Assembly: GCA_023450935.1 (NCBI GenBank)
Contig: JAEXGH010000023.1
Coordinates: 436 to 64,435 of the forward strand
Length of the DNA: 64,000 nucleotides
Origin: Verrucomicrobiota bacterium
GTDB taxonomy: Bacteria > Verrucomicrobiota > Verrucomicrobiia > Opitutales > Intestinicryptomonadaceae
Reading direction: 5' to 3'
A program made the translations under genes and the position numbers. The first letter of the stretch is position 1, and every line of letters starts with the position of its first letter. Shown piece after piece: positions 3,665-47,068 of the stretch. The notes beneath the pieces were generated by a model, which was not told the DNA's origin, did not search any database, and saw nothing but the letters and a program-made list of their open reading frames with translations.

Positions 3665-3763
3665 GCGCCGCTTGGAAAGATTTAAGATTCTTTTTTACAG
3701 AGGAGCGTTGAATATAATTCAACCTCCGACGGTGCCCAAATAATGGAAACCCGCCCTTGCGGG

Positions 3764-14089: not shown

Positions 14090-14116
14090 TAAAAAAACGC
14101 GGAAAAAAACCGCGTT
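14090..14116 (-). terminator. Rho-independent terminator after the ACP/GcvT-like operon
   Basis: On the minus strand: AACGCGG-TTTTTTT-CCGCGTT followed by a T-run (14096-14102 / 14110-14116, tail 14090-14095). It separates the GcvT-like gene from the MFS gene. Confidence 0.7.
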
Positions 14117-14142: not shown

Positions 14143-15189
14143 TCAGAATCCGTCCATTCCGCGCAGCAGACTTTGGGCGAGTATTGCGGGGCGCGCGACG
14201 GTCGCAAACGCGGGCTGCCCGTCTGAGTTGTCGAAGACAAGTCCCGCGTAGGCTACGGTTTCGTCTATGAGCGCGAGGGCGAACGAGGGGTCGGATTCGT
14301 CAACGGCGGCAATTTCGCCGACTTGTTGCGCGCCGTTGAAGATTCCGTCCGAAACTTTCGGCGCGGCGGCGTTTACCGCAATGAGCTTGCGTTTTTTTGC
14401 TGCTCTGGCGGCGGCGAATCTTTCTGCAAACGCGTCTTTGTGCATGTCCATTTGCCACTGCAATCCGAGTTCGAAGGGGTTTGCCGTCCTTCGCCCCTCC
14501 GCGAAAATGTTGAAAAAATTGCCTTTTGCGCGGGCGGCTAAAACCGCGCGCGTTCCCGCAAGCGCGCCTCCGAGCTCCAGCACGGCGTTTTTGAGGTCTT
14601 CGAACAACTGCGCGGCGGCGTCGTTTTCAACGAGGATTTGGTAGCCGAATTCGCCAGTTTTTCCCGCGCGCACCACTACCGCGCCGCTTCCGCGAAAATC
14701 GTATTTTCCCGCCGACATAAACGACATATTGAATATGTCCGCGCCGAAGAGCTTTTTTACCGCCTTCCACGCATCTGGGCCGTCAACGGAGAGCAATGTG
14801 TGGGTGCCGTCGATATCCGCGCCGTTTTGCGCGAATGCGTTGCGGACTTGCTCCGGAAAGTCGGTTTCTGCGAAGACGAAAATTTTGTCGTCGATATCCG
14901 CAAGCGTCGTCGCCGCGCTGACGAACCCGTTCCCGTCGGGCAAAAACGTTTCCATAGCCCTGCCGTAGCGTAGCTTCAGCACGTTGCCCGCGAGCTTTCC
15001 GTCGAGAAACTCCGCACCGTCGGCTTCGTCGAACGCGAATTTTTGGACGAACGACATATCCCAGAGCACCGCCGAATTACGCAAAGCCTCCGTTTCGCGC
15101 GCCAAGCCCGCAACGGTATCGACGCATTCCGCCGCGCCGAGCGAGCCGAGTTTTGCCCCGTTTGAAATCCACTGTTTTTCGAGCGTCAT
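14143..15189 (-). CDS. GcvT-like (aminomethyltransferase / YgfZ folate-binding fold) protein
   Basis: 348 aa. 'AVLWDMSFVQKFAFDEADGAEFLDGKLAGNVLKL..GRAMETFLPDGNGFV' follows the GcvT N-terminal pattern (lfDvSh..i.v.G.da..fL..l.tndv). A C-terminal barrel-like region ends 'AILAQSLLRG'. The ATG at 15187-15189 overlaps the stop of the upstream ACP (ATGA). Confidence 0.65.
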   Translation of the reverse strand: MTLEKQWISNGAKLGSLGAAECVDTVAGLARETEALRNSAVLWDMSFVQKFAFDEADGAEFLDGKLAGNVLKLRYGRAMETFLPDGNGFVSAATTLADIDDKIFVFAETDFPEQVRNAFAQNGADIDGTHTLLSVDGPDAWKAVKKLFGADIFNMSFMSAGKYDFRGSGAVVVRAGKTGEFGYQILVENDAAAQLFEDLKNAVLELGGALAGTRAVLAARAKGNFFNIFAEGRRTANPFELGLQWQMDMHKDAFAERFAAARAAKKRKLIAVNAAAPKVSDGIFNGAQQVGEIAAVDESDPSFALALIDETVAYAGLVFDNSDGQPAFATVARPAILAQSLLRGMDGF

Positions 15190-15467
15190 TGAGCCTCCTT
15201 TTGCGCGTTTATTATGAAGTCCACAAGCGTGTTGAACGAGCGCAGAACCGAAAGGTCGCCTTCGGGAATCTTCACTCCGAATACCGACTCGGCGCACGAA
15301 ACTATCTCGAGAATGTCGAGCGAATCAAGCCCCAGCCCCGAGCCCACAAGCGCGATGTCTTCATGTATGTCGCGCGGGTCGATATCCAAGTCGAGGCTTT
15401 CGGCGAGTTTCGCCTTCAGCTGTTCCGACACTTCCCTGCGTCGTTTCAGTTTGAGTTGGTCTATCAT
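15186..15467 (-). CDS. Acyl carrier protein (cluster ACP 1)
   Basis: 93 aa from the ATG at 15465-15467. Phosphopantetheine attachment motif 'GLGLDSLDILEIV'. Confidence 0.8.
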   Translation of the reverse strand: MIDQLKLKRRREVSEQLKAKLAESLDLDIDPRDIHEDIALVGSGLGLDSLDILEIVSCAESVFGVKIPEGDLSVLRSFNTLVDFIINAQKEAQ

Positions 15468-15548
15468 AAAAATAATGTCGAATTTCTCAAAAAAAAGGTC
15501 GATTATGCCAACATAATTGGCACGATATTTCAAGCATAAACACAAGTT

Positions 15549-16256
15549 ATGAAATTTTGCATAGTCATTCCCTGCTACAACCACGAGGAAACGCTCGCCG
15601 CCGCAGTGGCGTCGCTGCCCGCGGGCGTTGACGTAGTTGTTGTGGACGATGGCAGCAACACTCCCATAGGGGCTGTCGGCGGGGCGGAGGTTTTGCGGCT
15701 GGAAAAAAATTCGGGCAAGGCGGCCGCGTTAAGGGCTGGGTTTGCGCGGGCGCGTTCGCTGGGCGCAACGCACGTTATTTCAATGGACGCCGACGGTCAG
15801 CACCCCGCCGAATATCTCGGGAAAATTATGGACGCCGCGCGGGAAAATCCCGAAAACATAGTTGTTGCCGTGCGCGATTTCGACAATCCCGCAGTGCCTG
15901 CGGGGCGGCGGTTTCTGAACCGTTTTTCCAATTTCTGGTTTCGGGCGGAAACGGGAAAAACATTGGGCGACACGCAGTGCGGCTTCCGCTGCTATCCGCT
16001 GGAGGTGCTTGAAAGACTCGATTTGCGCTTGGGCGGATTCGCCTTCGAAGTCGAACTTCTCGTCAAGGCGGCGTGGGCGGGAACGGATTTTTGCGAAGTG
16101 CCCATTCCCGCAATATACACGGCGCAGACGCTTGCAAAGTCGCATTACAAGCCGTTTTCGGACACGCTGAAATTTTCGGCTATGAACACGCGCCTGTTTT
16201 TCGAATCGGTTTTTCTGTCGAAAAGCGCGCTGAAAAAAATCGTCCTTAAAAAATGA
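15549..16256 (+). CDS. Family 2 glycosyltransferase
   Basis: 'CIVIPCYNHEETL', 'VVVDDGSNTP' and 'SMDADGQH' (DxD). 235 aa. Confidence 0.8.
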   Translation: MKFCIVIPCYNHEETLAAAVASLPAGVDVVVVDDGSNTPIGAVGGAEVLRLEKNSGKAAALRAGFARARSLGATHVISMDADGQHPAEYLGKIMDAARENPENIVVAVRDFDNPAVPAGRRFLNRFSNFWFRAETGKTLGDTQCGFRCYPLEVLERLDLRLGGFAFEVELLVKAAWAGTDFCEVPIPAIYTAQTLAKSHYKPFSDTLKFSAMNTRLFFESVFLSKSALKKIVLKK

Positions 16257-18625
16257 ACATTCGGGCGGCTACGGATTTTGTGATGCGCTTCAAGGCGGCT
16301 GTCGTTGCGACGGCGGTTGCGGTTGCGTGCGCGGCGGCGGTTGTTGTTTCCCGCGCGGATTTCGCCGAAAACATATACGACGCCGTCCCGAAGTCGGACG
16401 CCGTGATACAGTCGCACATTTGGGCGAACAAAATTTTCAACCGCGCCGACGCCCTTTTTTTCGACGTCGAAAAATCCGTCAACGCGCCCGCGTTCGTTGC
16501 CGAACTCGCCGCGCGCCTTGCCAAAGTAGACGGCATTTCGCGCGTTTCTGGGGCGGCTTCTTCCGCCAAATTCGACCCGCGCATACTCGCATACGTTCCC
16601 GCGGTTTTCGACGCCGCCGCGGCGGAATCGCTTTCGCAAAAATTGACGGAATCCGCGCTTGCCGAACGCTTCCTTTCGCTTAAAAAGGCCGTTTTGGGCA
16701 ACGACTACGCCGCAAAATTCGCCCTGAAATACGACGCCCTCGGCGTTTTTGCCGCCGCCGCGCAAAACCTCAAAACGCGCGCGCTGCCCGCGGGCGTATC
16801 GACGGAGGGCTCGCGCATTGTTTCGGCATCGGGCGGCTCGTATTTGGTCGTCGCGGAAGGTTCGTTTGCGTGTTCCGATTCCGGACGAAGCGGGCGTCTT
16901 GTTGCCGATGTCTTAAAAATCCTCGACGACCTCAAAGCCCGCTATCCCGATGTCAGCGCGGCGTTCGCGGGCGGATACAGAGTGGCTGCCGACAACGCCG
17001 CAATAGCCAAAGCCGACTCCTTCAAATGTCTTTGGCTTACAATCGCAGTTATGGCGGTGCTGTGTGCGTTTTCGTTCGGCAACAGGGTTTTCGCGCTCGT
17101 AGCCCCGTTGCCTTCGGTGTTCGGCTCGGCGGTTGCGTTCGCTGTTGTGTGCGCGTTTTTCCCGACCGTTTCGGCGGTGTCCGTCGCGTTCGCGGGAATC
17201 GCAATAGGGGTGAGCATTGACTACGCGATACACGTTTTGTCGGCAATCGACGCGCGCTCGGGCGAATACCGCGCCGCCGACGCCCGCGCAGACTTTGCAG
17301 GGCTGGCGCGCCCCATAGGCGTCGTCTCCGCAACTACGGCGGCGGCCTTCGCGCTGATGTTGTGCTTCGGCGGCGACGGCTTTTTGCAGCTCGGAATTTT
17401 CGGGGTGGCGGGCATATTCGTTTCGGCGGCGGCAAGTTTGACGCTGCCCGCGCTGTTCTCGGGAATGCGGCTTAAAAACAGGGTTCGGCGGACGCTGCCC
17501 GAAATTGCCGGAGCTGCGCTGGCGCGTTTTTCGCGGTCGAGACTTTCGCTTGTTGTGTTTGTTTTGCTGAGCGTTTTTGCGGCGGCGAACGTTTCGAAAG
17601 TCGGCTTCAACGGCGACTTGTCTTCGTTCAACATAAGAACCTCCGCCGCGCGCGCAGACTACGACTGCATTCGAAAAAATTGGGACGGCGTGCTCGGCGG
17701 CAAAAGCGTTGTTTTGCGCGCCGAAAATTTCGGGGAATTGCTTGCGGCGAAGGAGCGGCTCGACGTATTTTTCGAATCGCGCGGCATTGCAGCCTCGGGG
17801 TTGCAGACTGCGTTGCAGCCCGTGCGGATACAGCGCGAAAACGCCGAACGCTGGCGCGCGTTCTTTGCCGACCCCGCGTTGCGCGAACGTGTGCGCGATG
17901 CATGCAAAAAAGCGGGGCTGAATTTCGGACGCATTTATTCGGCATACGAAAAGAATCCCGAAATGCTCGCCGATACTGCCGCGTTCGCCGCCTCGCCGCT
18001 CGCCGAAATTATGCGCGGCTGCGTCCGCGCCGACGGCGGGGTTTGCGCGCTTTCGGCTTCTTTTGCTCCGCCCGAGGGCTTCGACGCGCCCGCGTTCGCC
18101 GCCGCACTTGCGCGGTCGGTTCCCGAAGCGTCGCTTGTCGATGCCGCATACCTCGGTTCGCGCATAGCCGACATTTCATTTGAATGGCTCGCGAAGTTTG
18201 CCGCGGCGGCCTTCGCGTTTGCGGGCGTTTATTTGTTCGCGGTTTACGGCTGTTGTGTTCGCGCGGTGGCGGCGGTCTTGATTCCCGTTGCGGTAGGGCT
18301 TTTCTGGAGCTTCGGCGCGATGGGCTTTTTCGGAATACAAATCAACATAATAAATTCCGTGTTCGTGGTGTTTGCCGTGTGCATGGCGCAGGATTACGCC
18401 GTGTTTGTCTTCAACGGCGTGCGGCGCGGCGGCGGGATTGCGCGTGTGTTCGCGCCCGTATTTTTGTCGGCGGCGACAACGGTGTCGGCGTTCGGGGTTT
18501 TGTGCGTTTCAAAACACCCCGTTATAAACGGTCTAGGCGCGGCTTCGGCGATTTCGATTTTCGGAATATTTTTGGCTTGCGCGTGTCTTGCGGAAAGGAT
18601 TTCCCGATATGGAAAAAAATCTTAA
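16253..18625 (+). CDS. MMPL / RND-superfamily lipid exporter
   Basis: 790 aa arranged as two blocks, each a periplasmic loop followed by about 5-6 hydrophobic helices. The size and topology are typical of MMPL exporters found in aryl-polyene-type loci. ATGA overlap with the GT2 gene. Confidence 0.7.
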   Translation: MNIRAATDFVMRFKAAVVATAVAVACAAAVVVSRADFAENIYDAVPKSDAVIQSHIWANKIFNRADALFFDVEKSVNAPAFVAELAARLAKVDGISRVSGAASSAKFDPRILAYVPAVFDAAAAESLSQKLTESALAERFLSLKKAVLGNDYAAKFALKYDALGVFAAAAQNLKTRALPAGVSTEGSRIVSASGGSYLVVAEGSFACSDSGRSGRLVADVLKILDDLKARYPDVSAAFAGGYRVAADNAAIAKADSFKCLWLTIAVMAVLCAFSFGNRVFALVAPLPSVFGSAVAFAVVCAFFPTVSAVSVAFAGIAIGVSIDYAIHVLSAIDARSGEYRAADARADFAGLARPIGVVSATTAAAFALMLCFGGDGFLQLGIFGVAGIFVSAAASLTLPALFSGMRLKNRVRRTLPEIAGAALARFSRSRLSLVVFVLLSVFAAANVSKVGFNGDLSSFNIRTSAARADYDCIRKNWDGVLGGKSVVLRAENFGELLAAKERLDVFFESRGIAASGLQTALQPVRIQRENAERWRAFFADPALRERVRDACKKAGLNFGRIYSAYEKNPEMLADTAAFAASPLAEIMRGCVRADGGVCALSASFAPPEGFDAPAFAAALARSVPEASLVDAAYLGSRIADISFEWLAKFAAAAFAFAGVYLFAVYGCCVRAVAAVLIPVAVGLFWSFGAMGFFGIQINIINSVFVVFAVCMAQDYAVFVFNGVRRGGGIARVFAPVFLSAATTVSAFGVLCVSKHPVINGLGAASAISIFGIFLACACLAERISRYGKKS

Positions 18626-19496
18626 ATGGAACGGACGCTCCTACGGCGGGCGTTTCGGCAACGGAGTTTTCGCGGTGTTGCTGCGCTTCGGGCGAATGCC
18701 CGCGTATGTGCTGATGGCGTTTGTCGCCCTGTTTTTTATGCTTTTCAGGCGCAGGCAGTGCGCGGCAAGTTCCGAGTATTTAAGCGCGCGGTTCGGCGAA
18801 AAAGTAGGCGCGGTTTCGTGGCGGGCATACAGACATTTGTTTTCGTTCGGAATGGCGATAATCGACAAATACGCATACTTCTCGGGCGCAAAAATGGAGA
18901 TTTTCGATGAATGCGGCGCGCAGATACGCAAGTCGCTTTCGCGCGGGAAGGGGGCAGTTTTGGTGGTCTCGCACATAGGCGGCTGGGCTATTTCGGGCGG
19001 GCGTCTTGCCGAATACGACTGCCCCGTGGGCGTAGTCGGCATTTCGGCTGAGCACGACTACATCGAGAAAATGAAGAACAGGCGTCTTGTCCGCAAAGAG
19101 CCCGCAATGATAGCCTCCGCCTCCGACCCGTTTTCGATGGTGGCAGCGATGTCGCTTTTGCGCAAAAACGGAATTGTTGCAATGCACGGCGACAGATACG
19201 TCGGAGGAAAATTCGCGCGCGTGCGGTTCCTGGGGCGGGAGGCGCGCCTGCCTGTTTCGGCGTTCGCCCTCGCCGCCAAAACGGGGGCTACGGTCTTCAA
19301 TGTTTTCTGCGTGCGCACGCGTTCGGGAGGATATAAAATGACGGCGTCTTGCGGGCTGACAATTCCGGATTTGCGCGGCGCGGAACTTGACGCCGCCCTT
19401 GCCGACGTCGCGCGCGCATACGCCGCCGACATCGAGGACGTTTTGCGCGAACACCCGTTTGAGTGGTTCAACTTTTATCCCTTTTGGCAGCAGTGA
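18609..19496 (+). CDS. Lipid-A-biosynthesis-type (LpxL/HtrB family) lysophospholipid acyltransferase
   Basis: N-terminal TM segment, 'GAVLVVSHIGGWAISG' (HxGxW motif region) and 'IVAMHGDRY'. The ATG at 18609 overlaps the MMPL end by 17 nt. The ORF-track start at 18588 is a TTG. Confidence 0.6.
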   Translation: MEKNLKWNGRSYGGRFGNGVFAVLLRFGRMPAYVLMAFVALFFMLFRRRQCAASSEYLSARFGEKVGAVSWRAYRHLFSFGMAIIDKYAYFSGAKMEIFDECGAQIRKSLSRGKGAVLVVSHIGGWAISGGRLAEYDCPVGVVGISAEHDYIEKMKNRRLVRKEPAMIASASDPFSMVAAMSLLRKNGIVAMHGDRYVGGKFARVRFLGREARLPVSAFALAAKTGATVFNVFCVRTRSGGYKMTASCGLTIPDLRGAELDAALADVARAYAADIEDVLREHPFEWFNFYPFWQQ

Positions 19497-19541
19497 TTTT
19501 TCTTGCAAGGGTCGGCGCATTGCCTTAGCTTTGCGGACAGA

Positions 19542-19805
19542 ATGGATAGAAATACTTTGATTGCCGACCTAAAGCGAAACATCATAAAATCGCTCAACCT
19601 CCCAGACGTGTCTCCCGAAGACATCGGCGACGATTTGCCGCTGTTCGAGGCCGAAGGGCTGGGGCTCGACTCGGTTGACGCGCTCGAGCTTGTGGTCATG
19701 GCGGAGCGCGACTACGGCGTTTCAATCGACGACAAGGACGAGGCAAAATCGGTCTTCGGCTCTGTTTCGGCACTTGCCGACTACATAATTGCGCACAAGA
19801 AATAG
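19542..19805 (+). CDS. Acyl carrier protein (cluster ACP 2)
   Basis: 87 aa from the ATG at 19542. 'GLGLDSVDALELV'. Confidence 0.8.
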   Translation: MDRNTLIADLKRNIIKSLNLPDVSPEDIGDDLPLFEAEGLGLDSVDALELVVMAERDYGVSIDDKDEAKSVFGSVSALADYIIAHKK

Positions 19806-19807
19806 GT

Positions 19808-21928
19808 ATGCAAAGGGGCGTATGCGTTGTGTCTGTCGGCGTTTGCGCCTGCTCGGGAAATACTCCGCAGTCCGCGCTTGAGTGCGCGCTCGGCAAAACA
19901 CGCGATTTTTTCGCGCCCGTTTCGAGTTTCGAAAGCCCGCGCCACTCGGCGAAAATGGTGGGCTATGCGCGCCCCGCGTCGGACTTCGGCGGAAAGTTGC
20001 TGCCTCATTGCGCCAAGATTTTGTTTTCGGCACTTGATGGCGCGCTTGAAGGGCTTGATTTTTCTGAAGTCGATTCGGGGCGTAAATCGCTTTATTTGGG
20101 CACGAGTATCGGCGGAGTTTTCGAGTCCGAAAATATGCTTGCGCGCAATATGGCTTCGCCCGAAAACGGGTCGTGGCGCGAGCTGAAGTTTTACGAGTGC
20201 TCCGCGCTTTCCGAGTTGGCGGCAAAACGCTGCGGCTTCGGCGGAGAGTGCGCCGCGTATTCAACCGCGTGCTCCAGCTCATACATAGCGCTTGCCGATG
20301 CCTGCAACGCAATAGTTCAGGGCGACTGCGATGTCGCCGCCGTGTGCGGAGCCGACGCGCTTTCGCGCATAACCCTCAACGGGTTCGGCTCGCTTTTGCT
20401 GTTGTCGCAGTCGCGCGCGCGCCCGTTCGACAGGCTGCGCGACGGCATCAATTTGGGCGAGGCCGCCGCCGTCCTGATTTTGGCGTCGGAGCGTTTCGCC
20501 GAAAAAATTTCGCGCAAAAAGCCGCTTGCGTATGTTTCGGGTTGGGCGTGCACCGCCGACGCATACCACGCAACCGCACCTCACCCGCGCGGAGAAGGGG
20601 CGGCAAGGGCGATGAAAAACGCGCTCGACTTCGCCGGAATTGCGCCCGAAAAAATTTCTTATTACAACGCCCACGGCACGGGCACAAAGGGCAACGATAC
20701 CGCCGAATACGCCGCGATTGAGTCGGTTTTCGGCGCGGGCGGCGTCCCGTATTCTTCAATCAAACGCGCGTTCGGGCACACGCTCGGGGCGAGTGGCGCG
20801 CTCAATGCGGCAGTGTCGATTTCGTCGATGAATGCGGGCGTGCTTGTTCCCAATTTGGGCTATTCCGACGGCGGCGGCGAATTTGCGCGCGCGCCGATTA
20901 CAGAGCCTTCCCGCGCGGAGCTTGAAAACGTTTTGAGCGTTTCGCTCGGTTTCGGTGGCAACAACGCGGCGGCGGTTTTTTCGAAAAAAGACGTTCCGCA
21001 TTCGGCGCGGAAGCGCAGACTGTTTGTGTATTCGGCGGCGGAGGTAGCCCCGTTCGCTTCGGGCGGGCAGACCGTCCGGCTTCCCGATTTGCTGCCGAAC
21101 GTCGCCGCCCTAAAAAAACGCCGCTGGGCGAAACTCCAGCAAATGGTTTTGGATTGCGCCGAAAGATGTCTGGACGGGCTCGACATTTCGAACGCGGAAA
21201 AAATCGGCGTGTGCTTCGGCACGGGCGCGGGAATGGTATCGGAGACGCGCAGGTTCATCGAGGCCACGATTTCCAAGCGCGAAGCCGAGCCCATACCGAG
21301 CGCGTTTGCAAATTCGGTGCACAATGCGGCTGCTTCGGCGATTTCGCTGAAGTTCGGACTGAAGGGTTTGAACAGCGCGGTCAGCGCGAAGGAGGTTTCC
21401 TTTGAGGCGGCCTTGAAACAGGCTTGGCGCGCCGTCTGCGCGGGCGCGCTCGACTCCGCCGTGGTTTGCGCGGGCGACGAATATTCAGACCTCGCCGAAA
21501 AGTTTGTCGGGCAAAACGCGGTTTTCGCGAAGCCCTCCAAACCGCTTACCGACTATGCATGCGCGTATTTTGTAGGCGCGGAAAACGTCGGCCTGTCGGG
21601 CGGCGGGGCGGCGAAACCGCTTGCCGAAATAAAATCGCTCGAAGTATTCCGCAGAAAATCGGCGCGTGAGACGGCTGAATTGCTTGCGGGTTGCGCTCGC
21701 GCGTATTTGTCAGCTCCCGACAACGCGAATCTGCGCGCCTTTGCCGATTCGGTTTTCGCGCTTGCGGGCGTCGGGCGCGTGTGCGATGTTTCGGAGCATT
21801 GCGGCGCGAACTATTCGGCTTCGGGCGCGGCGTTTGCGGCGGCCTTGCGCGACGGCGCGGGGCTTGCGGCTTCGGTCTCGCTTTCGAGCGCGGGAATGTG
21901 CGCGGTTACGGTTTTCGAGGTTTTATGA
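19808..21928 (+). CDS. Beta-ketoacyl synthase fused to a CLF-like second KS-fold domain
   Basis: 706 aa. The N-terminal half has the Cys-His-His triad contexts 'YSTACSSSYIAL', 'YNAHGTGTKGND' and 'FGHTLGASG'. The C-terminal ~300 aa ('FANSVHNAAASAISLKFGLKGLNSAVSAKEVSFEAAL', 'VVCAGDEY') is KS-like but has no TACSS-type cysteine. Confidence 0.8.
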   Translation: MQRGVCVVSVGVCACSGNTPQSALECALGKTRDFFAPVSSFESPRHSAKMVGYARPASDFGGKLLPHCAKILFSALDGALEGLDFSEVDSGRKSLYLGTSIGGVFESENMLARNMASPENGSWRELKFYECSALSELAAKRCGFGGECAAYSTACSSSYIALADACNAIVQGDCDVAAVCGADALSRITLNGFGSLLLLSQSRARPFDRLRDGINLGEAAAVLILASERFAEKISRKKPLAYVSGWACTADAYHATAPHPRGEGAARAMKNALDFAGIAPEKISYYNAHGTGTKGNDTAEYAAIESVFGAGGVPYSSIKRAFGHTLGASGALNAAVSISSMNAGVLVPNLGYSDGGGEFARAPITEPSRAELENVLSVSLGFGGNNAAAVFSKKDVPHSARKRRLFVYSAAEVAPFASGGQTVRLPDLLPNVAALKKRRWAKLQQMVLDCAERCLDGLDISNAEKIGVCFGTGAGMVSETRRFIEATISKREAEPIPSAFANSVHNAAASAISLKFGLKGLNSAVSAKEVSFEAALKQAWRAVCAGALDSAVVCAGDEYSDLAEKFVGQNAVFAKPSKPLTDYACAYFVGAENVGLSGGGAAKPLAEIKSLEVFRRKSARETAELLAGCARAYLSAPDNANLRAFADSVFALAGVGRVCDVSEHCGANYSASGAAFAAALRDGAGLAASVSLSSAGMCAVTVFEVL

Positions 21929-22536
21929 AATTTGCGGTGAACATTTTTTTGCTTTGCGCTGTCTTTTCGGCTTCGGCATTCGGTTCGGTAGCCGCCGACC
22001 TCGCGCGAGCGTCGAAAAAACACCCGTTTACGCTGCTTGAGGCCGAGCAGACAAAAACAGTTTCGTTCTTCGACGAACGGCTGCAAAGCGAAATTGTAAT
22101 TGCCGTTTCGTCCGACGGGAAAATGCGCATGCAAACGCTTTCGCCGTTCGAGGCGGCTACCGTTTTCGACGGCAAGACCACCGCCCGATACGAAAAAACG
22201 TCGGGCGTTTGGCGCAGGCTTGATTCCGACGGCGGCGCGCTTGCAAAGCGCGTGTTCGAGCAAATCGGCGGGCTTTTCACCGCTTCGGGCGGCGGCGACT
22301 ACGATGTTTCGGAAAACGGCGCGGTGCTCACGCTCGTTCCCAAAAGCGCGTTCGTCCGCGCGGCGGTCTCCAAAATCGAAGTGGGCACATCTGGCGCGGG
22401 CGAAAACACCGCAGTCTCTTTCGTCAAAATAACGGATTCCGATTCCGACATTACCGAACTGCGAGTGAAAAAAATTTCGCATGCCCAACCCGACGGAATA
22501 TTCGATGTTTCCAAACCCGACTGGAGGGCGAAATGA
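21925..22536 (+). CDS. Exported LolA-like lipid/lipoprotein carrier protein (tentative)
   Basis: 203 aa with the signal peptide 'MKFAVNIFLLCAVFSASAFG'. The size, a beta-rich sequence ('ATVFDGKTTARYEKTSGVWRRL') and the position between KS genes match LolA-like proteins of aryl-polyene loci. ATGA overlap at both ends. Confidence 0.45.
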   Translation: MKFAVNIFLLCAVFSASAFGSVAADLARASKKHPFTLLEAEQTKTVSFFDERLQSEIVIAVSSDGKMRMQTLSPFEAATVFDGKTTARYEKTSGVWRRLDSDGGALAKRVFEQIGGLFTASGGGDYDVSENGAVLTLVPKSAFVRAAVSKIEVGTSGAGENTAVSFVKITDSDSDITELRVKKISHAQPDGIFDVSKPDWRAK

Positions 22537-23048
22537 GAAGGCTTCCCGCATTTGCGGCGTTTGTTTTTTTTGCGGTTTCGGCATATTGCCAAGTAGCCGA
22601 ATTCGGCTTGCGTTCGGCTTCTTTGCGGCAGAGGGGCGTGTGCAAAACGCAGTCCGCGGAGTTTGCCGTAGACTTGATGTTGTCGGTTTCCGACACCCTC
22701 AAAATCGTTTTGCGCAACGATTTTGCAACGCTTGCAAAGCTCGAGTTTTCGAAGTCGGGCGAATTGCTGAAATCGTCGGCGGGCGCGTGGGGAAACGGCG
22801 GAGATGTCCGCGAGTTCGCCGCACTGATGAAGCTTGCGCTCGGCTTTTATCCCGCTCCGCCCGCGGTTGTCCACACGGTTTCCGACGCCGCGGGCAATCC
22901 GCTTAAAATAGTAGATTTTGACGGCGGGCGCGAAATCGATTTTTCGTATGCGCCAAACGCCCGCGCGGGCGCAGTGCCCGATTCGCTGGAAATAAAAAGC
23001 GGCGGGTGCATTTTGAAACTGAAAACAGTGCAGATTTTAAGAAAATGA
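22533..23048 (+). CDS. Small exported protein of unknown function (cluster-associated)
   Basis: 171 aa with the signal-like N-terminus 'MRRLPAFAAFVFFAVSAYC'. ATGA overlaps to both neighbours argue that it is translated. I recognise no motif in it. Confidence 0.5.
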   Translation: MRRLPAFAAFVFFAVSAYCQVAEFGLRSASLRQRGVCKTQSAEFAVDLMLSVSDTLKIVLRNDFATLAKLEFSKSGELLKSSAGAWGNGGDVREFAALMKLALGFYPAPPAVVHTVSDAAGNPLKIVDFDGGREIDFSYAPNARAGAVPDSLEIKSGGCILKLKTVQILRK

Positions 23049-25435
23049 ACCCGATACAACCGACGGCCGCAATAAGCGGCATTGGCATTTTTTCCCCCAT
23101 AGGAAATTCCCCGCGCGAAGTTGAGGCTTCGCTGCGCGCGCAAAAAGACGGCATAGCGCTGGTATCGAAAATAGACACTTCAAAATTTGCGTCGCACATT
23201 GCCGCCGAAGTGCGCGGCGTGGACTTTTCAAAGGAGCTTTCCGCGCGCGAACTGGAGGATTTTACCGACCCTTTTTTGCGCCTTGCCCTTGTCGCCGCCA
23301 AGGCGGCAATGCGCGACGCGAAAATCGAAACGTCCCGCCGACGCGACGACATAGCAATGGTTCTTGCAACGTGCAATGCGGGCATGACAAAGCAGGAGCT
23401 TGAATACAGGGCGTTGAACGGCTTCGACGAACCCTTCTCGCGCCGCGACTCAATGCAGGGAGAGTTCTACGCGATAGCCCGCGCGTTCGCTTCGGCGTTG
23501 AATTTGGGCGGGGCGTGCTTTGTCATAAACACGGCGTGTTCGGGCTCTACCGCGGCGGTCGGCTTGGCGCAGACTCTCGTTCGGCAGGGTAAATACAAGA
23601 CGGTTTTGGCGGGCGGAGCCGACGCGCTCGCGCTTGCGAATTTTGCGGGCTTTAGCGCGCTCAAAGTTGTTTCGCCCGAAAAGACCGCGCCGTTTTCGAA
23701 CCCCGCGGGAATGAACATAGGAGAGGGCGCGGCGTTCTGGATTGTGGAGGAATCGGGCTCGGCGAAATCGCGCGGGGCGAAAGTCTACGGAAAGATAATC
23801 GGCCGCGCCACTGCGGGCGACGCCCACCACCCCACCCAGCCCGATCCCCGCGGCGACGGCGCGTTCAGGACAATGCGCGCGGCTTTGGAAAATTCGGGCG
23901 CGGCGTTGGAGGATATCGGCTGCATAAACGCGCACGCTTCGGGAACGTCGGCGAACGACAGGGCGGAGTCGAAGGCGGTTGCAAAGTTTGTAGGCGCGTC
24001 GGGCGTTCCGTTCACCTGCACAAAGTCATACCACGGGCATTGCATGGGCGCTACGGGCATAATAGAGGCAACCTGCCAGCTGCTTGCAATGAACGGCGGC
24101 TTCATTCCGCCCACGCTGCGCTTCGGCGAATTGCGCGCGGGTTGCGCGGTTGCGCCCGTTTCCGAATTGCGCGAAGTTGAATATAACTGTTTCCTTTCGG
24201 CAAACTACGCGTTTGCGGGCAACAACGCCGCAGTTGTGGTTGCGCGCAACGGCTTCGAAAAATACGCACCGCGAGCCGAGAAAAAACTCCGCAAGGTGAT
24301 TTCGGGGCTGTCGGCGGTTTCGCCGCTCGGGCTTGGCATGGACGCCAATCTGGAGCGTTTGGGCGAAGGTTTTTGCGCCGTGGGCGGTGTTTCACGCTTT
24401 GAATGTGCCGCGAAAGCTGGAACGGTTTGCCTGCCGAATCCGCGCACGCTCGACCGCCGCATAGATTTTTCGGGAATGAATTTCATCGGCGTGTGTTCCA
24501 CGCTTGCCTGCGCCCGCGCGCTGGAGTCGGCTAAACTGCGCGCCGCCCGCGACGATTCAGTCGGGCTTGTCGCCGCCGTTTCGCGCGGGGCAAGCCGACA
24601 GGCGCATATGGCGGGTGTTTTTTCCGACCCGCAAATGCGTGGCGACATTGCCTGCTTTTCCAACGTGACGCCGAACTCCACTGCGGGCTGGGTTTCGAAA
24701 GCTCTGGAAATCAGGGGCGCGAACACGACTTTCACTTCGGGGCACAACTGCGGTTTGCAGACGCTCGAATACGCCTCCATGTTAATCGACGGCGGCGACG
24801 CCCGCGCGCTTGCCGTTTTTGCCGCCGACGAGCTTTCCGCCGAGCAGATGAACGCCTACGAAAGAATCGGCTATCTGCGTTCGGGCGACAAATTCAATTT
24901 GCGCTACGCCGACGAATACGCTACGTTTTTCGGCGAAGGCTCTTGCGCGGCGGTTGTGGAAAGTCTCGAGAGTGCGCAGGCGCGCGGCGCGGAGATTTTC
25001 GGCGAAATTTTGGGCGCGGCATCGACTATGGACGGCGGCGATTTCTTCGACGCCGACATGGCCTCCGACGGGCTGCAACACGCCGCAGAGGCGGCGGTTT
25101 CGCAGGCGGGATTGGATTTTGCCGACATTGATTTGATTGTGTGGTCTCCGCGCGGCAGTGCGGTTGACTCAACCGCCGTGAACGTGCGCGACAGGCTTTT
25201 CGGCGGCGTTCCGATGGCGACGACCGTTTTCAACACGGGCTATATGGAAACGGCGTCTTCGCTGTTTTCGCTTGCGTGTGCGCTTTATTCATACGCGCGG
25301 GGTGGTTGTTTGTGGCGGCAGCTCACTGGCGTGGAGGGCTTCGACGGCGCGGTTTTTCCGAAAAATCCGAAACATATTTTGGCTTTGGCAAATTCGTTTA
25401 CGGGCGCGAACTACGCAGTTGTTGTGGGGCGTTAG
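23045..25435 (+). CDS. Beta-ketoacyl synthase fused to a CLF-like second KS-fold domain
   Basis: 796 aa from the ATG at 23045. The N-terminal half has 'INTACSGSTAAVGL', 'INAHASGTSAND' and 'YHGHCMGATG'. The C-terminal ~380 aa is KS-like ('FFGEGSCAAVVESLESAQARGAEIFGEI') but lacks the His-His motifs and a canonical active-site context. Confidence 0.8.
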   Translation: MNPIQPTAAISGIGIFSPIGNSPREVEASLRAQKDGIALVSKIDTSKFASHIAAEVRGVDFSKELSARELEDFTDPFLRLALVAAKAAMRDAKIETSRRRDDIAMVLATCNAGMTKQELEYRALNGFDEPFSRRDSMQGEFYAIARAFASALNLGGACFVINTACSGSTAAVGLAQTLVRQGKYKTVLAGGADALALANFAGFSALKVVSPEKTAPFSNPAGMNIGEGAAFWIVEESGSAKSRGAKVYGKIIGRATAGDAHHPTQPDPRGDGAFRTMRAALENSGAALEDIGCINAHASGTSANDRAESKAVAKFVGASGVPFTCTKSYHGHCMGATGIIEATCQLLAMNGGFIPPTLRFGELRAGCAVAPVSELREVEYNCFLSANYAFAGNNAAVVVARNGFEKYAPRAEKKLRKVISGLSAVSPLGLGMDANLERLGEGFCAVGGVSRFECAAKAGTVCLPNPRTLDRRIDFSGMNFIGVCSTLACARALESAKLRAARDDSVGLVAAVSRGASRQAHMAGVFSDPQMRGDIACFSNVTPNSTAGWVSKALEIRGANTTFTSGHNCGLQTLEYASMLIDGGDARALAVFAADELSAEQMNAYERIGYLRSGDKFNLRYADEYATFFGEGSCAAVVESLESAQARGAEIFGEILGAASTMDGGDFFDADMASDGLQHAAEAAVSQAGLDFADIDLIVWSPRGSAVDSTAVNVRDRLFGGVPMATTVFNTGYMETASSLFSLACALYSYARGGCLWRQLTGVEGFDGAVFPKNPKHILALANSFTGANYAVVVGR

Positions 25436-25543
25436 AGCTTGGCGCGGCGCGCAGGGCGGACGGTCGTTTCGCGGAAGTCCTACTGAAAAACGTTGGGGCG
25501 TTTTGCGGGCACGGGGCAAGACCGAAAAATAGTTGGGCGCAAG

Positions 25544-26575
25544 CTATGCGTGCGGGTATACCGACGGCAGAGCGTCGGCGAAGTCGAGCACCGTTCCGCC
25601 CCACGAAAGCCCCACGCCGAACGCGCATACAAGCACTTTCATTCCGCGCTTTATTCTGCCCGCCGCCACCGCGTCGGCGATTGCTATTGCGGGGCTGCTC
25701 CCGCCGCAGTTGCCGATATTGCGCACGTCCAGATAGACTTTTTCGGCGTCCAGTTTCAGGCGTCGGGCGGCGGCGCGCACAATCATTTCGCCCGCCTGAT
25801 GGAACACGAACAAGTCGATGTCTGCCTTGGAAAGCGCGTTGCGTTTCAGCGTCTGCTCAACACACTGCGGGATTGTTTTGAACGCGAACGAGAAAATTTT
25901 CAGCCCGTCAACAAACAGGTCTGCAGCCGCGCGGACGTTGCCGTTGCCGTCGTCGCGTTCGATGTAGTCTTCGGGACGGGGCGGGCGGCGCATTCCCGAG
26001 GCGGGGCAAATCAGGTCGGCGTAGCCGCCGCCGTCGGTTCCCAGCGAAAATTTGCCCAAGCGCGCCCCCCTACCGCGCTCCACAACGCATGCGCAGGCGG
26101 CGTCGGAGAAGAGCGACACCGCGCTCTTGTCTTTGGGGTTGATTAGTTTCGAGGGGGTGTCGCCGCAAAGAAGCAGCACTTTTTCCGCCATTGAAGAGTC
26201 CACATATGCCGCGGCGGTCGCCAGCCCGTAGATAAATTGCGTGCAGCCGAGGTTGATGTCGAACGCGGCTGCGGAAGTTTTCAGACCCAGTCTGTCCTGC
26301 AGAATGCAGGCGGTTGACGGCAGGAGGTAGTCGGGCGTTTGGGTCGCGAAAAAGAGGGCGTCGAAAGAATCGGGCGCGTGCGTTTCGAGAATGCGTTTTG
26401 CCGCCGCAAACGCGAGGTCGGAGGCGCACTCGTCGGGCGCGGCAATTCGCCGTTCGTATATGCCCGAAGCGGCGGCTACTTTCTCCATCACCTCCGCGCC
26501 GAAACGTTTGCAGAGTTCGGCGTGCGTGAGCGTCGCGTTCGGGAGCGCGTATGAAATTGCCGTTAGCGACGCCAT
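25544..26575 (-). CDS. FabH-like 3-oxoacyl-ACP synthase III (KAS III family)
   Basis: 343 aa. The Cys-His-Asn triad contexts are 'FDINLGCTQFIYGL', 'FVFHQAGEMI' and 'IGNCGGSS'. The C-terminus is 'CAFGVGLSWGG'. The ATG lies 2 nt after the tonB-like stop. Confidence 0.8.
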   Translation of the reverse strand: MASLTAISYALPNATLTHAELCKRFGAEVMEKVAAASGIYERRIAAPDECASDLAFAAAKRILETHAPDSFDALFFATQTPDYLLPSTACILQDRLGLKTSAAAFDINLGCTQFIYGLATAAAYVDSSMAEKVLLLCGDTPSKLINPKDKSAVSLFSDAACACVVERGRGARLGKFSLGTDGGGYADLICPASGMRRPPRPEDYIERDDGNGNVRAAADLFVDGLKIFSFAFKTIPQCVEQTLKRNALSKADIDLFVFHQAGEMIVRAAARRLKLDAEKVYLDVRNIGNCGGSSPAIAIADAVAAGRIKRGMKVLVCAFGVGLSWGGTVLDFADALPSVYPHA

Positions 26576-26577
26576 GA

Positions 26578-27390
26578 TTATTTTGCCGTAAACGTTATGG
26601 AAATTGTGTGCGGTTTGTTGTCGGGCGGCGCGGGGATTGTGATTGCCCTGAGCACTTGGATAACCGATTTGTCGAAGTCGTCGTCGCCGCTTGATTCAAT
26701 GATTCTGACGTTGCTGATTGCCCCCAGCCTGCTTACGCTGAACGCCACTTTGGCATAGAGCGAGTCGCTCGAAATTGTGGGCACTTTCCAGTTGCGCTTT
26801 GCAAGCATCAAGATTTCCTGACTGTATGCGGCAAGCATATCAACAACTGCGCCCGCGTTCGGCCCCGCCGACGGGCGCGGGTTTTGCGAGAGACTGTCGA
26901 GATTGCTTGTTTGCGAAGTGATTTTGCCGATTTTTACGGGCTTTTGTTGCGGGCGTTTTGTCGGCTTTTTTTGCGAAGTCTTTTTGTTCTTCTTTTTCCA
27001 CTCGTCGAACAAAACGGTTTTTTGCGCGGGTTTTCTCTCGACTTTTTTAGGCTCGGGTTTCGGAGCTGGCTTGGGCGAAGGTTCGGGGTCGGGCGGCGTG
27101 GGCTGCGGTTCCGGCTCGGGCTGCGGCGGGACGGGTTCCGGAATTTCCAGCGGGTCGATTTCCTCTATTTTTTCGACGTTCAATTCCGGCTCGGCGGGCT
27201 CGGGCTGTTGCGGGGAGCTTACCGCCGACTGCGGCTCGGGGTCTACCATTTCGAAAACAACCTTGTTTTCCACGTTTTTTTCTTTCGGGAAAAGCGTGTT
27301 TACGAGCGCGTATGCGAACATTGCAACCGCCACGATTACATGCAACGCCGCCGAATAACAGTAGCCGAGCTTTGTGTTATCGACGCTCAT
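26578..27390 (-). CDS. TonB-family energy transducer
   Basis: N-terminal TM anchor, a Pro/Glu/Lys-rich spacer 'PEPVPPQPEPEPQPTPPDPEPSPKPAPKPEPKK' and a C-terminal TonB_C-like domain 'VAFSVSRLGAISNVRIIESSGDDDFDKSV'. ATGA overlap with exbD. Confidence 0.7.
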   Translation of the reverse strand: MSVDNTKLGYCYSAALHVIVAVAMFAYALVNTLFPKEKNVENKVVFEMVDPEPQSAVSSPQQPEPAEPELNVEKIEEIDPLEIPEPVPPQPEPEPQPTPPDPEPSPKPAPKPEPKKVERKPAQKTVLFDEWKKKNKKTSQKKPTKRPQQKPVKIGKITSQTSNLDSLSQNPRPSAGPNAGAVVDMLAAYSQEILMLAKRNWKVPTISSDSLYAKVAFSVSRLGAISNVRIIESSGDDDFDKSVIQVLRAITIPAPPDNKPHTISITFTAK

Positions 27391-27797
27391 TTCACTTCGG
27401 TGTCGAGGTGCAGTTTTGTGAGATTGTGGCGTTTGATTGCGTCTATTACGTCCACAATTTTCTGGTAGGGAAGTATGAAATCGGCGCGCAGGCTGATTGC
27501 GGGCGGGTCTTTATCGTTGGCGAGCATTCCGAGCAGTCTGTCAAGCTCCGCCATATCCACGGGCTGTTTGCCCCAGTAGATCTGCCCCGCCTTTGTAATG
27601 GAGATTACCTGAAACTTGATTTCGGGGCGTTGGCTTGCCGAATTTTTTTCCTGCTTGGGCAGGTTAATCGGGATTGTCTGCTCCAAAAGCGGCGTGCTTA
27701 TCATGAAGATGATGAGCAAAGAGAACGCCAAGTCCATAAGCGGGGTAACGTTCAATTCCGTCATTACGGAGAGAGACTGTCGGCGTTTTAATTTCAT
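27387..27797 (-). CDS. exbD: ExbD/TolR biopolymer transport protein
   Basis: 136 aa. 'ELNVTPLMDLAFSLLIIFMI' is the typical ExbD N-terminus. ATGA overlap with exbB. Confidence 0.8.
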   Translation of the reverse strand: MKLKRRQSLSVMTELNVTPLMDLAFSLLIIFMISTPLLEQTIPINLPKQEKNSASQRPEIKFQVISITKAGQIYWGKQPVDMAELDRLLGMLANDKDPPAISLRADFILPYQKIVDVIDAIKRHNLTKLHLDTEVK

Positions 27798-28630
27798 TCT
27801 TCGTCGAAGTTCGAAATTTCTTCGGAGTCGTCGTCGAGGCTGAAGTCTATGATTTTAGAGGCGTCGGGCGAAGTTGTCATTCTGCCCGAAACGGAAGCCG
27901 TTTTCGGCTCCCTCGTAGCGGCGGCTACGGGTGCGGCCGCCACCGATTCTATTTCGATTTTGTCGGAGAGCAGTCCCGCGTAGTTCTCTATATCAATGGT
28001 CATCTGCTTGATTTTCGAGCTTAGGTAGTTGTAGCCGAAAACCGACGGAATTGCTACAACCAGACCGGCAACCGTGGTAAGAAGCGCGCCAGCAACGCCG
28101 GGGGCGAGCTGCTGGAGCGTAACCGAAGTCTGCCCGCTCATCGACCCGAAGCAGTCCATAACGCCCCACGCCGTTCCGAGCAGCCCCAAGAACGGCGCGC
28201 CGCTTATAATTGTCCCCAGCAGAACCATTTTTGACTCGTATTTTTCGAGCTGTTCCGAGACGCTTCTGTTGAGCGCGTTTTCAATCATTGCCGTGCGCGT
28301 CGCCGCGGGCACGCGCGCCGCGTTTCCGAGCGACGCCAGCGTGTTGATTGCGTCTTTGAGAAGCTTCCCGAAGGGGCTTGCGCCCTGCAGCGCACCCGCC
28401 GCCTCAATCAGCGAGCGGTATTTCGCCACTTTCCTGTGCGCCGACTTGTTCATTTCGTCAATCGAAACTAAGTCCGAATACTTGCAGAACATAACTCCCC
28501 AAGCCATAACGCTCAGAACAAGAAGAATTACCACAATTACCTGTCCCGCAAAATTCGACTGGAAAAAGTAGTCGGTCAGCGTGTCTCCCACGACGTTTGT
28601 TTTCAAAGCAAAGTTTACAAAAAAGTTCAT
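27794..28630 (-). CDS. exbB: MotA/TolQ/ExbB proton-channel protein with an acidic C-terminal tail
   Basis: 278 aa. 'GTIISGAPFLGLLGTAWGVMDCF' and 'LAPGVAGALLTTVAGLVVAIP' are signature helices. It has a ~60-aa tail ending 'DFSLDDDSEEISNFDEE'. Confidence 0.8.
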   Translation of the reverse strand: MNFFVNFALKTNVVGDTLTDYFFQSNFAGQVIVVILLVLSVMAWGVMFCKYSDLVSIDEMNKSAHRKVAKYRSLIEAAGALQGASPFGKLLKDAINTLASLGNAARVPAATRTAMIENALNRSVSEQLEKYESKMVLLGTIISGAPFLGLLGTAWGVMDCFGSMSGQTSVTLQQLAPGVAGALLTTVAGLVVAIPSVFGYNYLSSKIKQMTIDIENYAGLLSDKIEIESVAAAPVAAATREPKTASVSGRMTTSPDASKIIDFSLDDDSEEISNFDEE

Positions 28631-29507: not shown

Positions 29508-29610
29508 TTCCGCAATAATCCACGTTTCGGATTTTTTTTCAAGAGTTTATAATCGGTATTTCCCATTTTGGCTTGACTATTTCCGCGTTTTTTTAACCTA
29601 CTGTCGGTGT

Positions 29611-29994
29611 ATGGTTTGCAAATCCAGATTTTCACCAAAGCGCGCGGCGTTGCTTTCGCTGCTCAGGTCGGGGCGGCTCGACCACCCGACGGCTATGGAA
29701 ATCTATTCGGCAATGCGCCGGACGTATCCCAACATAAGTATGGGAACCGTTTACAGAAATCTGAAGTTTTTGAGCAGGCAGGGCGAAATACTCGTTGTGG
29801 GCGCGCCCGACGAATCGGAGAGGTTCGACCACAACACGTTTGCGCACTCGCATTTCTTCTGTAAAAAGTGCGGGAGGATTATGGACATACCCATTCCCGA
29901 AAAATTCGTCGAGACTGCCGAGGCGTCGTCGGGCGTTAAAATACAGTCGTTGCGGGTCGTGGCGGAGGGCGTCTGCAACAGGTGCGGCAAGTAG
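29611..29994 (+). CDS. zur: Fur-family metalloregulator (Zur-like by context)
   Basis: 127 aa from the ATG at 29611. Winged helix 'MGTVYRNLKFLSRQG', 'HSHFFCKKCG' and 'GVCNRCGK' (two CxxC pairs). Divergent from zupT. The longer 320-aa ORF is antisense to zupT and is rejected. Confidence 0.75.
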   Translation: MVCKSRFSPKRAALLSLLRSGRLDHPTAMEIYSAMRRTYPNISMGTVYRNLKFLSRQGEILVVGAPDESERFDHNTFAHSHFFCKKCGRIMDIPIPEKFVETAEASSGVKIQSLRVVAEGVCNRCGK

Positions 29995-32713: not shown

Positions 32714-36631
<3,918 letters not shown>

Positions 36632-47064: not shown

Positions 47065-47068
47065 GCGG

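Follow-up and report, generated by a model that had tools for sequence, protein, structure and literature searches.

An aryl-polyene-related lipid locus of Opitutales bacteria with an ACP-linked GcvT-fold gene and no reductive enzymes nearby

Organisation of the locus

We describe a compact locus of an uncultured gut bacterium of the Verrucomicrobiota (Opitutales, Intestinicryptomonadaceae) in which genes related to those for the widespread aryl polyene (APE) and for flexirubin lipids stand beside a gene for a GcvT-fold protein, itself paired with an acyl carrier protein (ACP). The locus lies at positions 14143-26575 of the window, by which we mean the whole 64-kb stretch of DNA that was analysed (64,000 nucleotides; assembly GCA_023450935.1, contig JAEXGH010000023.1, positions 436 to 64,435 of the forward strand). 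Gene calls in the window were based on a listing of open reading frames (ORFs) together with Pfam and NCBIfam scans. These bore out every gene named in the original prediction, an earlier reading of the locus made from the sequence alone.

Two genes on the minus strand form the left arm. ACP1 (93 aa; 15186-15467) carries a DSL serine motif and was called from a PP-binding match, NCBIfam ACP matches and the gene call in L001. An ATGA overlap joins it to the gene of the GcvT-fold protein (348 aa; 14143-15189; PF01571, 94.7 bits), a member of an ACP-linked subfamily that is probably independent of tetrahydrofolate (THF). The terminator previously placed at the left border is present as an intrinsic-terminator-like stem-loop at 14096-14116 on the minus strand (a 7-bp stem with five GC pairs, followed by TTTTT), at the end of the ACP1-GcvT operon. 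An intergenic region of 81 bp (15468-15548) separates the two divergent arms, and holds one sigma-70-like site facing ACP1 (TTGAGA-16-TATGAT at 15490-15463, minus strand; a consensus match only).

The plus-strand operon opens with a family 2 glycosyltransferase (GT2) of the polyprenyl-phosphate-sugar-synthase type, an analogue at the position of ApeJ (15549-16256; PF00535, 8.8e-22). It is followed by a 790-aa inner-membrane exporter of the resistance-nodulation-division (RND) or MMPL-like kind, analogous to ApeM (16253-18625; weak HpnN, HAE3 and MMPL NCBIfam matches), and by an acyltransferase of the LpxL/PatA (Lip_A_acyltrans) type (18609-19496; PF03279, 2e-19). ACP2, an APE-type carrier protein of 87 aa with a DSV serine motif (19542-19805), precedes KS1-CLF, a 706-aa fusion of a ketosynthase (KS) and a chain-length factor (CLF; 19808-21928; ketoacyl-synt, Ketoacyl-synt_C and PF13723, the last at 2e-10). 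Then come a LolA-like periplasmic carrier with a signal peptide, analogous to ApeL (21925-22536; PF03548, 1.3e-3; LolA2_flexi, 4.6e-5), a 171-aa exported protein at the ApeN position, recognised by an iterated hidden Markov model (HMM) search (22533-23048), and KS2-CLF, a second fusion of 796 aa, called from Pfam and NCBIfam matches and from motifs read in the sequence (23045-25435).

The coupling described for this operon is present in the sequence. ATGA overlaps occur at 16253, 21925, 22533 and 23045, the RND and acyltransferase genes overlap by 17 nt at 18609, and the only gaps from GT2 to KS2 are 45 nt (acyltransferase to ACP2) and 2 nt (ACP2 to KS1), all other junctions being overlaps. 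Rfam and tRNA scans of the 64-kb window returned no RNA features.

KS-CLF fusions and the origin of the locus in two modules

The two fusions differ in their affinities. In an alignment of KS1 with 12 homologues, Cys155, His289 and His324 of the N-terminal KS are invariant, and the C-terminal half, a PF13723-type CLF, has an invariant Glu where the active-site Cys would be. The best NCBIfam model of KS1 is PRK09185 (276 bits, cut-off 407), above FabF at 238 bits, and its N-terminal half is closest to the KS-CLF proteins of classical APE-like clusters, at about 40% identity. In KS2, the N-terminal KS has visible NTACSGS, NAHASGT and YHGHCMG motifs (Cys/His/His), and the C-terminal half is a full-length KS-like domain with His replacing Cys. 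Both halves of KS2 are orthologous to the KS-CLF part of a triple fusion, B12-radical-SAM (B12-rSAM)::KS::CLF, in loci L084 and L086 (48% and 34% identity).

On the FabF equivalog model TIGR03150, with a cut-off of 493.75 bits, KS1 scores 237.6 and KS2 306 bits. Among solved structures, FabF enzymes match both KS domains best, and KS2 matches PDB 9s5h_B at 1e-47, an entry annotated only as a 3-oxoacyl-ACP synthase. That both KS/CLF pairs are fused had been predicted correctly; that fusion is an unusual feature had been suggested too, and this part falls away. Among 1,251 KS1 homologues at E <= 1e-10, most of the 120 matches listed are fusions of about 700 aa, and fused KS-CLF proteins were found in Verrucomicrobiota, Desulfobacterota and others. 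As for the carrier proteins, ACP1 matches NF006617 (PRK09184) at 40 bits and ACP2 at a borderline 69.6, against a cut-off of 70, and ACP2 stands immediately upstream of the KS-CLF gene in every related locus compared.

Relatives of the locus were collected by a scan of one genome per species, which gave 80 loci; the window proteins were mapped onto these by BLAST, with additional contig look-ups. The compact neighbourhood proves to be conserved. Two Opitutales metagenome-assembled genomes (MAGs; L082 and L083), with about 55% KS1 identity, share an 11-gene layout that includes fabH-tonB-exbD-exbB and has no ketoreductase (KR). Four Opitutales loci at 40-47% identity (L002, L003, L005 and L016), together with L085, keep the core and carry a KR of the short-chain dehydrogenase/reductase (SDR) family directly downstream of the GcvT gene. 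Further, L016 and L085 have a 4HBT thioesterase (TE), and L003 and L085 a divergent set of PlsC, FabA-like dehydratase and FMN-reductase genes.

Full APE/flexirubin-like clusters occur in other Verrucomicrobiia (L012, L020) and in Bacteroidota (L065, Phocaeicola vulgatus). These encode a KR, ApeP- and ApeI-like dehydratases, a TE and, often, a tyrosine/histidine ammonia-lyase, to which the Verrucomicrobiia loci add a stand-alone KS, a polysaccharide deacetylase, an AAT-family protein and PlsC; L020 also encodes a B12-rSAM enzyme. As a separate observation, the full cluster L020 holds, directly upstream of its ammonia-lyase gene, a gene (2476-4284) for a 602-aa fusion of FeeM-like N-acyl amino acid synthase (GNAT) and class I/II aminotransferase domains.

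Another gene set was found in a Chitinivibrionales MAG (L084, 3524-15193) and a metagenome (L086, 3566-12900). This operon, which we call module B, encodes the B12-rSAM::KS::CLF triple fusion (1,251-1,276 aa), a second KS-CLF, an ACP, a GcvT-like protein, a KR and a malonyl transferase; in L084 it is accompanied by divergent PlsC, FabZ-like dehydratase and FMN-reductase genes. No export genes were found in the module-B clusters of L084 and L086. NCBIfam gives the module-B proteins only the generic names FabF, FabG, FabD, FabZ and PlsC, along with a weak match to its 'lipid biosynthesis B12/radical SAM' model. Clusters of the L084/L086 type are apparently undescribed, and module B was seen here in Verrucomicrobiota and in the Chitinivibrionales MAG. 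L020 carries both modules side by side, its APE-type genes being joined by an ACP-GcvT-TE-KR group beside PlsC-FabA-FMN-reductase.

Because KS2 is orthologous to the module-B KS-CLF, KS1 is closest to classical APE-like KS-CLF proteins, and L020 has both gene sets, the window locus appears to be a chimera. Its components would be an APE-type assembly and export module and the remnant of a second module resembling a fatty acid synthase (FAS), consisting of KS2-CLF, ACP1 and the GcvT-like gene. These three had been treated in the original prediction as belonging to a single APE-like locus; the orthology of KS2 and the context of L084 and L086 assign them to a different module.

The ACP-linked GcvT-fold protein

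The GcvT-like protein aligns along the entire T-protein of T. maritima (1WOO). Of the GcvT models, only the Pfam fold domain PF01571 is passed, the best NCBIfam GcvT score being 71.7 bits against a cut-off of 300, and that on TIGR00528 being 55 against 236. A word-based search gave 64 homologous proteins, and a profile search of 1.84 billion representatives gave 458 clusters at E <= 1e-30, a set in which scores are continuous and some canonical GcvT proteins are included. In every locus examined, an ACP neighbours the GcvT-like gene or is fused to it. Natural ACP-GcvT fusions with an N-terminal PP-binding domain are found in five separate protein clusters (P0156, P0250, P0331, P0342 and P0360). 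Neither gcvH nor gcvP was found in the window.

In human GcvT, THF is contacted by Met56, Asp101, Tyr197 and Glu204, together with the GcvT-specific Arg233, and substitutions of Asp101 abolish activity (PMC9551070). When these residues are mapped onto the GcvT-like subfamily through 1WOO, the window protein has Val, Ala, Lys, Gln and Val, respectively. The replacements extend across the ACP-linked subfamily: the Tyr197 position is Lys (with one Gln and one Arg), the Glu204 position is Leu or Gln in nearly all members and never Glu, and the Arg233 position is His, Leu or Val in nearly all. The Asp101 position follows the lineages. It is Asp in all distant members of the subfamily (the tier at 33-39% identity) and Glu in the KR-containing Opitutales loci, with Glu or occasionally Asp in their closest homologues. 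Apart from two exceptions, the window protein, those of L082 and L083 and the homologues nearest to them have Ala, Ser or Thr there. The three Asp-type members whose loci were read (L020, L084 and L086) all also encode a B12-rSAM enzyme.

The GcvT-like protein had been described as a folate-type enzyme, a label that the replacement of the canonical THF-binding residues does not support. Because these residues are replaced, including the catalytic Asp in the window clade, folate-dependent one-carbon transfer by the window protein seems unlikely.

Loss of reductive and starter enzymes, and selection on what remains

The absence of enzymes expected of an APE pathway was examined with HMMs built from the related loci, run against all six-frame ORFs of at least 50 aa in the whole 64-kb window. 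No match was obtained there with the models for SDR ketoreductases (built from 32 related KRs), for the ApeP, ApeI and FabA hot-dog dehydratases, for 4HBT thioesterases, for aromatic ammonia-lyases (TAL), or for polysaccharide deacetylase, AAT-family and PlsC proteins. Queries for malonyl transferase, FMN-reductase and O-methyltransferase found no match in the window either. With Pfam, no AMP-binding or lyase domain was seen in any window ORF of at least 380 aa, and no cyclase/aromatase domain in the scans of window proteins. The other window ORFs scanned with Pfam, which took in all but a few short ORFs, encode housekeeping functions: ComM, CarA, an aldolase, HtrA, GspD/E/F, DnaK and GroEL, and further two glycoside hydrolase family 2 (GH2) beta-galactosidases, antiporters, a zinc-dependent alcohol dehydrogenase (Zn-ADH), QueF and PurE. 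The methyltransferases seen in these scans are the tRNA enzymes TrmD and TrmB.

HMMs, queries and Pfam scans thus agree with the earlier statement that the window holds no KR, dehydratase (DH), TE, AMP-ligase, ammonia-lyase or pathway methyltransferase. They do not make this absence a trait of the cluster family, for relatives at 40-47% KS1 identity have a KR beside the GcvT gene. Since these more distant relatives carry a KR, with or without other enzymes, next to that gene, the lack of reductive and starter enzymes is best read as a derived, lineage-specific loss from the neighbourhood.

The genes that remain are constrained. We compared nine cluster genes and two flanking genes with those of a relative, L087 (88-99% protein identity), KS2 and FabH being the genes that could not be compared. 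The ratio of nonsynonymous to synonymous substitution rates (dN/dS) is 0.02-0.20 for the nine cluster genes, including 0.14 for the GcvT-like gene and 0.09 for ACP1, and about 0.05 for the neighbouring MFS and GH2 genes. Further, even at the distance of L082 and L083 (about 55% identity), every cluster ORF is intact. By these ratios the compared genes are under purifying selection, and the locus, on this evidence, is not a decaying relic.

Anchoring and export genes

The likeness to APE and flexirubin loci had been claimed for the locus as a whole. It holds for seven families, which have homologues, arranged in a matching order, in the full clusters of other Verrucomicrobiota and of Bacteroidota: GT2, the RND exporter, the LpxL-type acyltransferase, the APE-type ACP, the KS with its PF13723-type CLF, the LolA-like protein and the protein that follows LolA. 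KS2, ACP1, GcvT and FabH lie outside that module.

Several of these assignments depend on comparison with classical clusters. The best NCBIfam matches of GT2 are PpgS, AglJ and ArnC, all under cut-off, and BLAST mapping shows GT2 and the RND gene to be syntenic in classical clusters. The RND protein, for which Pfam gives no match, is homologous by BLAST to the RND genes of classical clusters, and its orthologues in L083 and L085 match PF03176 (MMPL). For the acyltransferase, the NCBIfam models for phosphatidylinositol mannoside (PIM) acyltransferase and LpxL are matched under cut-off, and both this enzyme and GT2 are homologous to their counterparts in classical clusters.

In a motif alignment, the window acyltransferase has HxGGWA where classical clusters have HxGxWE, the His/Glu pair of which we take to be the catalytic motif of LpxL-type enzymes. 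HxGGWA is found in all compact Opitutales clusters examined (L002, L003, L016, L082, L083 and L085), with HxGGWQ in L005. The Glu of the motif is lost throughout the compact lineage, not just in the KR-less clade.

The LolA-like protein is about 27% identical to the L012 protein at the same position, which itself matches LolA at 1.3e-13. The 171-aa protein is homologous, by the iterated search, to the lipoprotein whose gene comes after that of LolA in classical Verrucomicrobia clusters, and the two have a QRGV motif in common. A canonical lipobox (L-x-G-C) is present after LolA in the classical Verrucomicrobia clusters L008, L009, L012, L013 and L018. It is degenerate or absent in the 171-aa protein of the window clade, which suggests that what was a lipoprotein has become soluble or anchored in another way. 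Pfam scans of ten family members gave weak matches (E = 0.04-0.09) to DUF3261, LolB and DUF4292. An AlphaFold2 model, built from an alignment of just four near-identical homologues, has a mean pLDDT of 47.8, and a Foldseek search of the PDB with this low-confidence model gave no match at E <= 0.001.

FabH, the tonB operon and neighbouring genes

A FabH-type 3-ketoacyl-ACP synthase III (25544-26575, minus strand) converges on the end of the plus-strand operon. It had been regarded as the gene that closes the locus. It begins just 2 nt beyond the stop codon of tonB and is therefore the last gene of an exbB-exbD-tonB-fabH operon, in which tonB-exbD-exbB occupy 26578-28630 on the minus strand (TonB_2, ExbD and MotA_ExbB domains). 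FabH passes NF006829 narrowly (250.3 bits, cut-off 249) and falls below TIGR00747 (235.6 against 292.1). Its LGC, HQA and GNCG motifs, which hold the Cys-His-Asn triad, are visible.

In six related loci fabH stands next to the cluster, in two different arrangements, and in L082 and L083 tonB-exbD-exbB are kept next to fabH. Any link of tonB-exbD-exbB to the lipid locus is uncertain. Co-transcription of FabH with a TonB energising system is odd in itself, and may hint at a connection between the lipid locus and outer-membrane transport.

Near the TonB system, at 28725-29994, a ZIP zinc transporter gene on the minus strand lies beside a Fur-family regulator, a pair that is likely of the Zur type. 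In the listed 320-aa plus-strand Fur ORF, which overlaps the ZIP gene, the FUR domain is confined to residues 199-309, and the true start therefore probably lies much later. Elsewhere in the window, two GH2 beta-galactosidase genes (9159-12581 and 32714-36598; 1,140 and 1,294 aa) and a type II secretion gspD/E/F block (43608-49207) fit a glycan-degrading, host-associated Opitutales lifestyle.

Proposed function and alternative explanations

We lean, with a confidence only a little above even, towards a functional and streamlined outer-membrane lipid pathway of the APE/flexirubin type, assembled from two modules in a host-associated Opitutales clade. The analysis itself establishes the gene identities, homology and synteny, the catalytic motifs of both KS halves and of FabH, purifying selection, the linkage of ACP with GcvT and the lack of KR, DH, TE and starter genes in the window.

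The conjectural parts are the substrate, the reduction in trans, what the GcvT-like protein does and delivery to the outer membrane, and for these we propose the following scheme. FabH would prime the pathway from a short acyl-CoA rather than an aryl group, and KS1-CLF with ACP2, and KS2-CLF with ACP1, would extend the chains by malonyl units. Because no KR or DH is encoded nearby, beta-keto processing would have to be supplied in trans by housekeeping FAS II (FabG, FabZ), or else by genes located in other parts of the genome. The acyltransferase and GT2 could then join the acyl chain to a membrane anchor, or build that anchor, and the RND pump, the LolA-like carrier and the 171-aa protein would carry the lipid to the outer membrane, a model of anchoring and export drawn from the roles proposed for ApeD, ApeJ, ApeL, ApeM and ApeN (PMC8253772). 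The GcvT-fold protein might dock the phosphopantetheine arm of ACP1 without folate chemistry. Lacking a route to an aryl starter, the pathway probably yields a glycolipid with an alkyl or partly unsaturated acyl chain and not an aryl polyene.

Several points weigh against a pathway of this kind. The Glu of the acyltransferase motif HxGxWE, conserved in classical clusters, is Ala in the window. In the window clade, two further positions conserved in the GcvT-like subfamily are altered (His to Leu or Val, and Glu to Lys), and part of module B may be non-catalytic, given these lost subfamily-invariant residues. The assignments of the LolA-like and 171-aa proteins have weak scores. FabH could simply be the housekeeping FabH of the cell, given its co-transcription with tonB, and the action of FabG and FabZ on chains bound to ACP1 and ACP2 is something that we purely infer.

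An alternative is that the pathway itself truly operates without KR and DH. The two KS-CLF proteins would then be minimal type II polyketide synthases (PKSs), making unreduced poly-beta-keto chains from a FabH starter, which would cyclise to pyrone- or resorcinol-type head groups before being acylated or glycosylated and exported. The lack of any KR, DH or TE in 64 kb speaks for this, as do the conservation of the KR-less layout under purifying selection and a weak similarity of FabH to ketosynthases for resorcinols of the DarB/StlD type. We nevertheless consider it unlikely: KS1 is closest to APE-type KS-CLF proteins, whose relatives always sit with KR and DH; the active-site Gln of the CLF of aromatic type II PKSs is found in neither CLF half (Glu in KS1, His in KS2); no cyclase/aromatase domain was seen in the Pfam scans; and FabH scores best as an ordinary FabH.

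Slightly more doubtful still is the idea of a partly defunct relic, in which, after the loss of KR, TE, DH and PlsC, only the anchoring and export genes work, on an ordinary fatty acyl lipid, while the GcvT-like protein, ACP1 and KS2 have been retained as pseudo-enzymes with a structural part to play. The Ala, Ser or Thr at the catalytic-Asp position of the GcvT-like protein in the KR-less loci would fit this, along with its two other altered positions there, the lost acyltransferase Glu and the degenerate lipobox. Yet all nine genes tested have low dN/dS, the GcvT-like gene and ACP1 among them, and ORFs are intact across lineages that have diverged to about 55% identity. Both KS domains keep their Cys-His-His motifs, and the HxGGWA form of the acyltransferase also occurs in KR-containing relatives and so is not tied to the loss of enzymes.

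That the KS proteins, ACPs and FabH are mere housekeeping FAS II paralogues, clustered with envelope genes by chance, is very improbable: FabH does just pass the NCBIfam FabH subfamily cut-off and FabF enzymes are the best structural matches of both KS domains, but fusions of 706-796 aa with FabF equivalog scores so far under cut-off rule against ordinary FabF/FabB paralogues, as the prediction had held, KS1 scores best with the APE-associated model PRK09185, and the gene order with APE-type export genes is conserved across phyla.

The greater novelty lies in the ACP-linked GcvT-fold family and in the module B pathway marked by it. We speculate, with rather low confidence, that this family represents a new class of folate-independent carrier-protein partners, acting on intermediates tethered to phosphopantetheine or chaperoning them, and marks an undescribed FAS/PKS-like module B, which in gut Opitutales merged with the export genes of the APE type and lost the KR, DH and TE that it once had, so as to yield a hitherto unknown non-aryl outer-membrane glycolipid. 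The gut-Opitutales version keeps the assembly and export scaffold and drops the aryl starter and all reductive enzymes, which suggests that such a scaffold can serve for another lipid. The recurrent and repeatedly fused ACP-GcvT pair points to an unstudied carrier-protein-dependent step that is directly testable, and the locus, at about 12 kb, is small enough for heterologous expression.

Comparison with known systems

The GcvT-containing locus had been said to match no characterised one, and the literature searched agrees: it gave no paper linking a GcvT-like gene with such clusters, and none on the pairing of an ACP with GcvT. What was found there on APE clusters of Verrucomicrobia consists of antiSMASH counts only. 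The locus descends from the aryl-polyene/flexirubin family, and would work in a similar way, while lacking four or five of the enzymatic features that define that family.

The nearest characterised relative is the APE cluster apeA-R of E. coli CFT073 and Xenorhabdus doucetiae (PMC8253772). Like the window locus, it has two ACPs, a KS and a PF13723-type CLF (ApeO/ApeC), an acyltransferase of the lipid-A/lysophospholipid type (ApeD), a GT2 (ApeJ), an RND exporter (ApeM), a LolA-like protein (ApeL), a small exported protein at the ApeN position and tightly overlapping genes. It differs in possessing the ApeQ ketoreductase, the ApeI and ApeP dehydratases, the ApeK thioesterase, the ApeH aryl-ACP synthetase, the ApeB methyltransferase, ApeG and ApeR, all of which the window lacks. 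Conversely, the KS and CLF of the window are fused, its acyltransferase has lost the motif Glu, and it has an extra KS-CLF of another lineage, an ACP-GcvT-like pair and FabH. The full clusters L012, L020 and L065 have KS-CLF proteins about 40% identical to that of the window, the same ACP-KS-CLF-...-LolA-lipoprotein order and the same LpxL-type acyltransferase, GT2 and RND genes. Their ammonia-lyase, KR, dehydratases, 4HBT, deacetylase, AAT-family protein and PlsC, and often a B12-rSAM enzyme, have no counterparts in the window.

Module B of L084 and L086 shares with the window the unit of an ACP followed by a GcvT-like gene. There, however, the GcvT-like protein still has the Asp missing from the window protein, and the module has a radical-SAM domain, KR, malonyl transferase, dehydratase, FMN-reductase and PlsC that the window does not. 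A more distant parallel is the putative 'Cluster I' for anammox ladderanes (bioRxiv 10.64898/2026.05.19.726425), which comprises amxACP, amxFabZ, an amxFabF2/amxFabFmut KS-CLF heterodimer and radical SAM enzymes. It is likewise from the PVC superphylum and likewise has an ACP of its own together with a FAS-like KS whose partner, a KS-like chain-length factor, is inactive. In contrast, the window has neither a radical SAM enzyme nor FabZ, and the papers on Cluster I that were read or searched mention no GcvT-like gene. Ladderane biosynthesis was considered as a function of module B and rejected, the resemblance being architectural only and the TIGR04072 radical-SAM match weak even in L084.

For the GcvT-fold protein itself, two comparisons are available. 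Iba57/YgfZ, which are THF-independent, have similarly lost the canonical THF-contact residues (PMC9551070). The T-protein (GcvT) shares the GCV_T fold over the full length and, as a partner, a small carrier protein bearing a swinging arm; its partner is the H-protein, whereas that of the window protein is an ACP. By analogy with the T-protein, which docks the lipoyl arm of the H-protein, we think that the GcvT-like protein interacts with the phosphopantetheine arm of ACP1.

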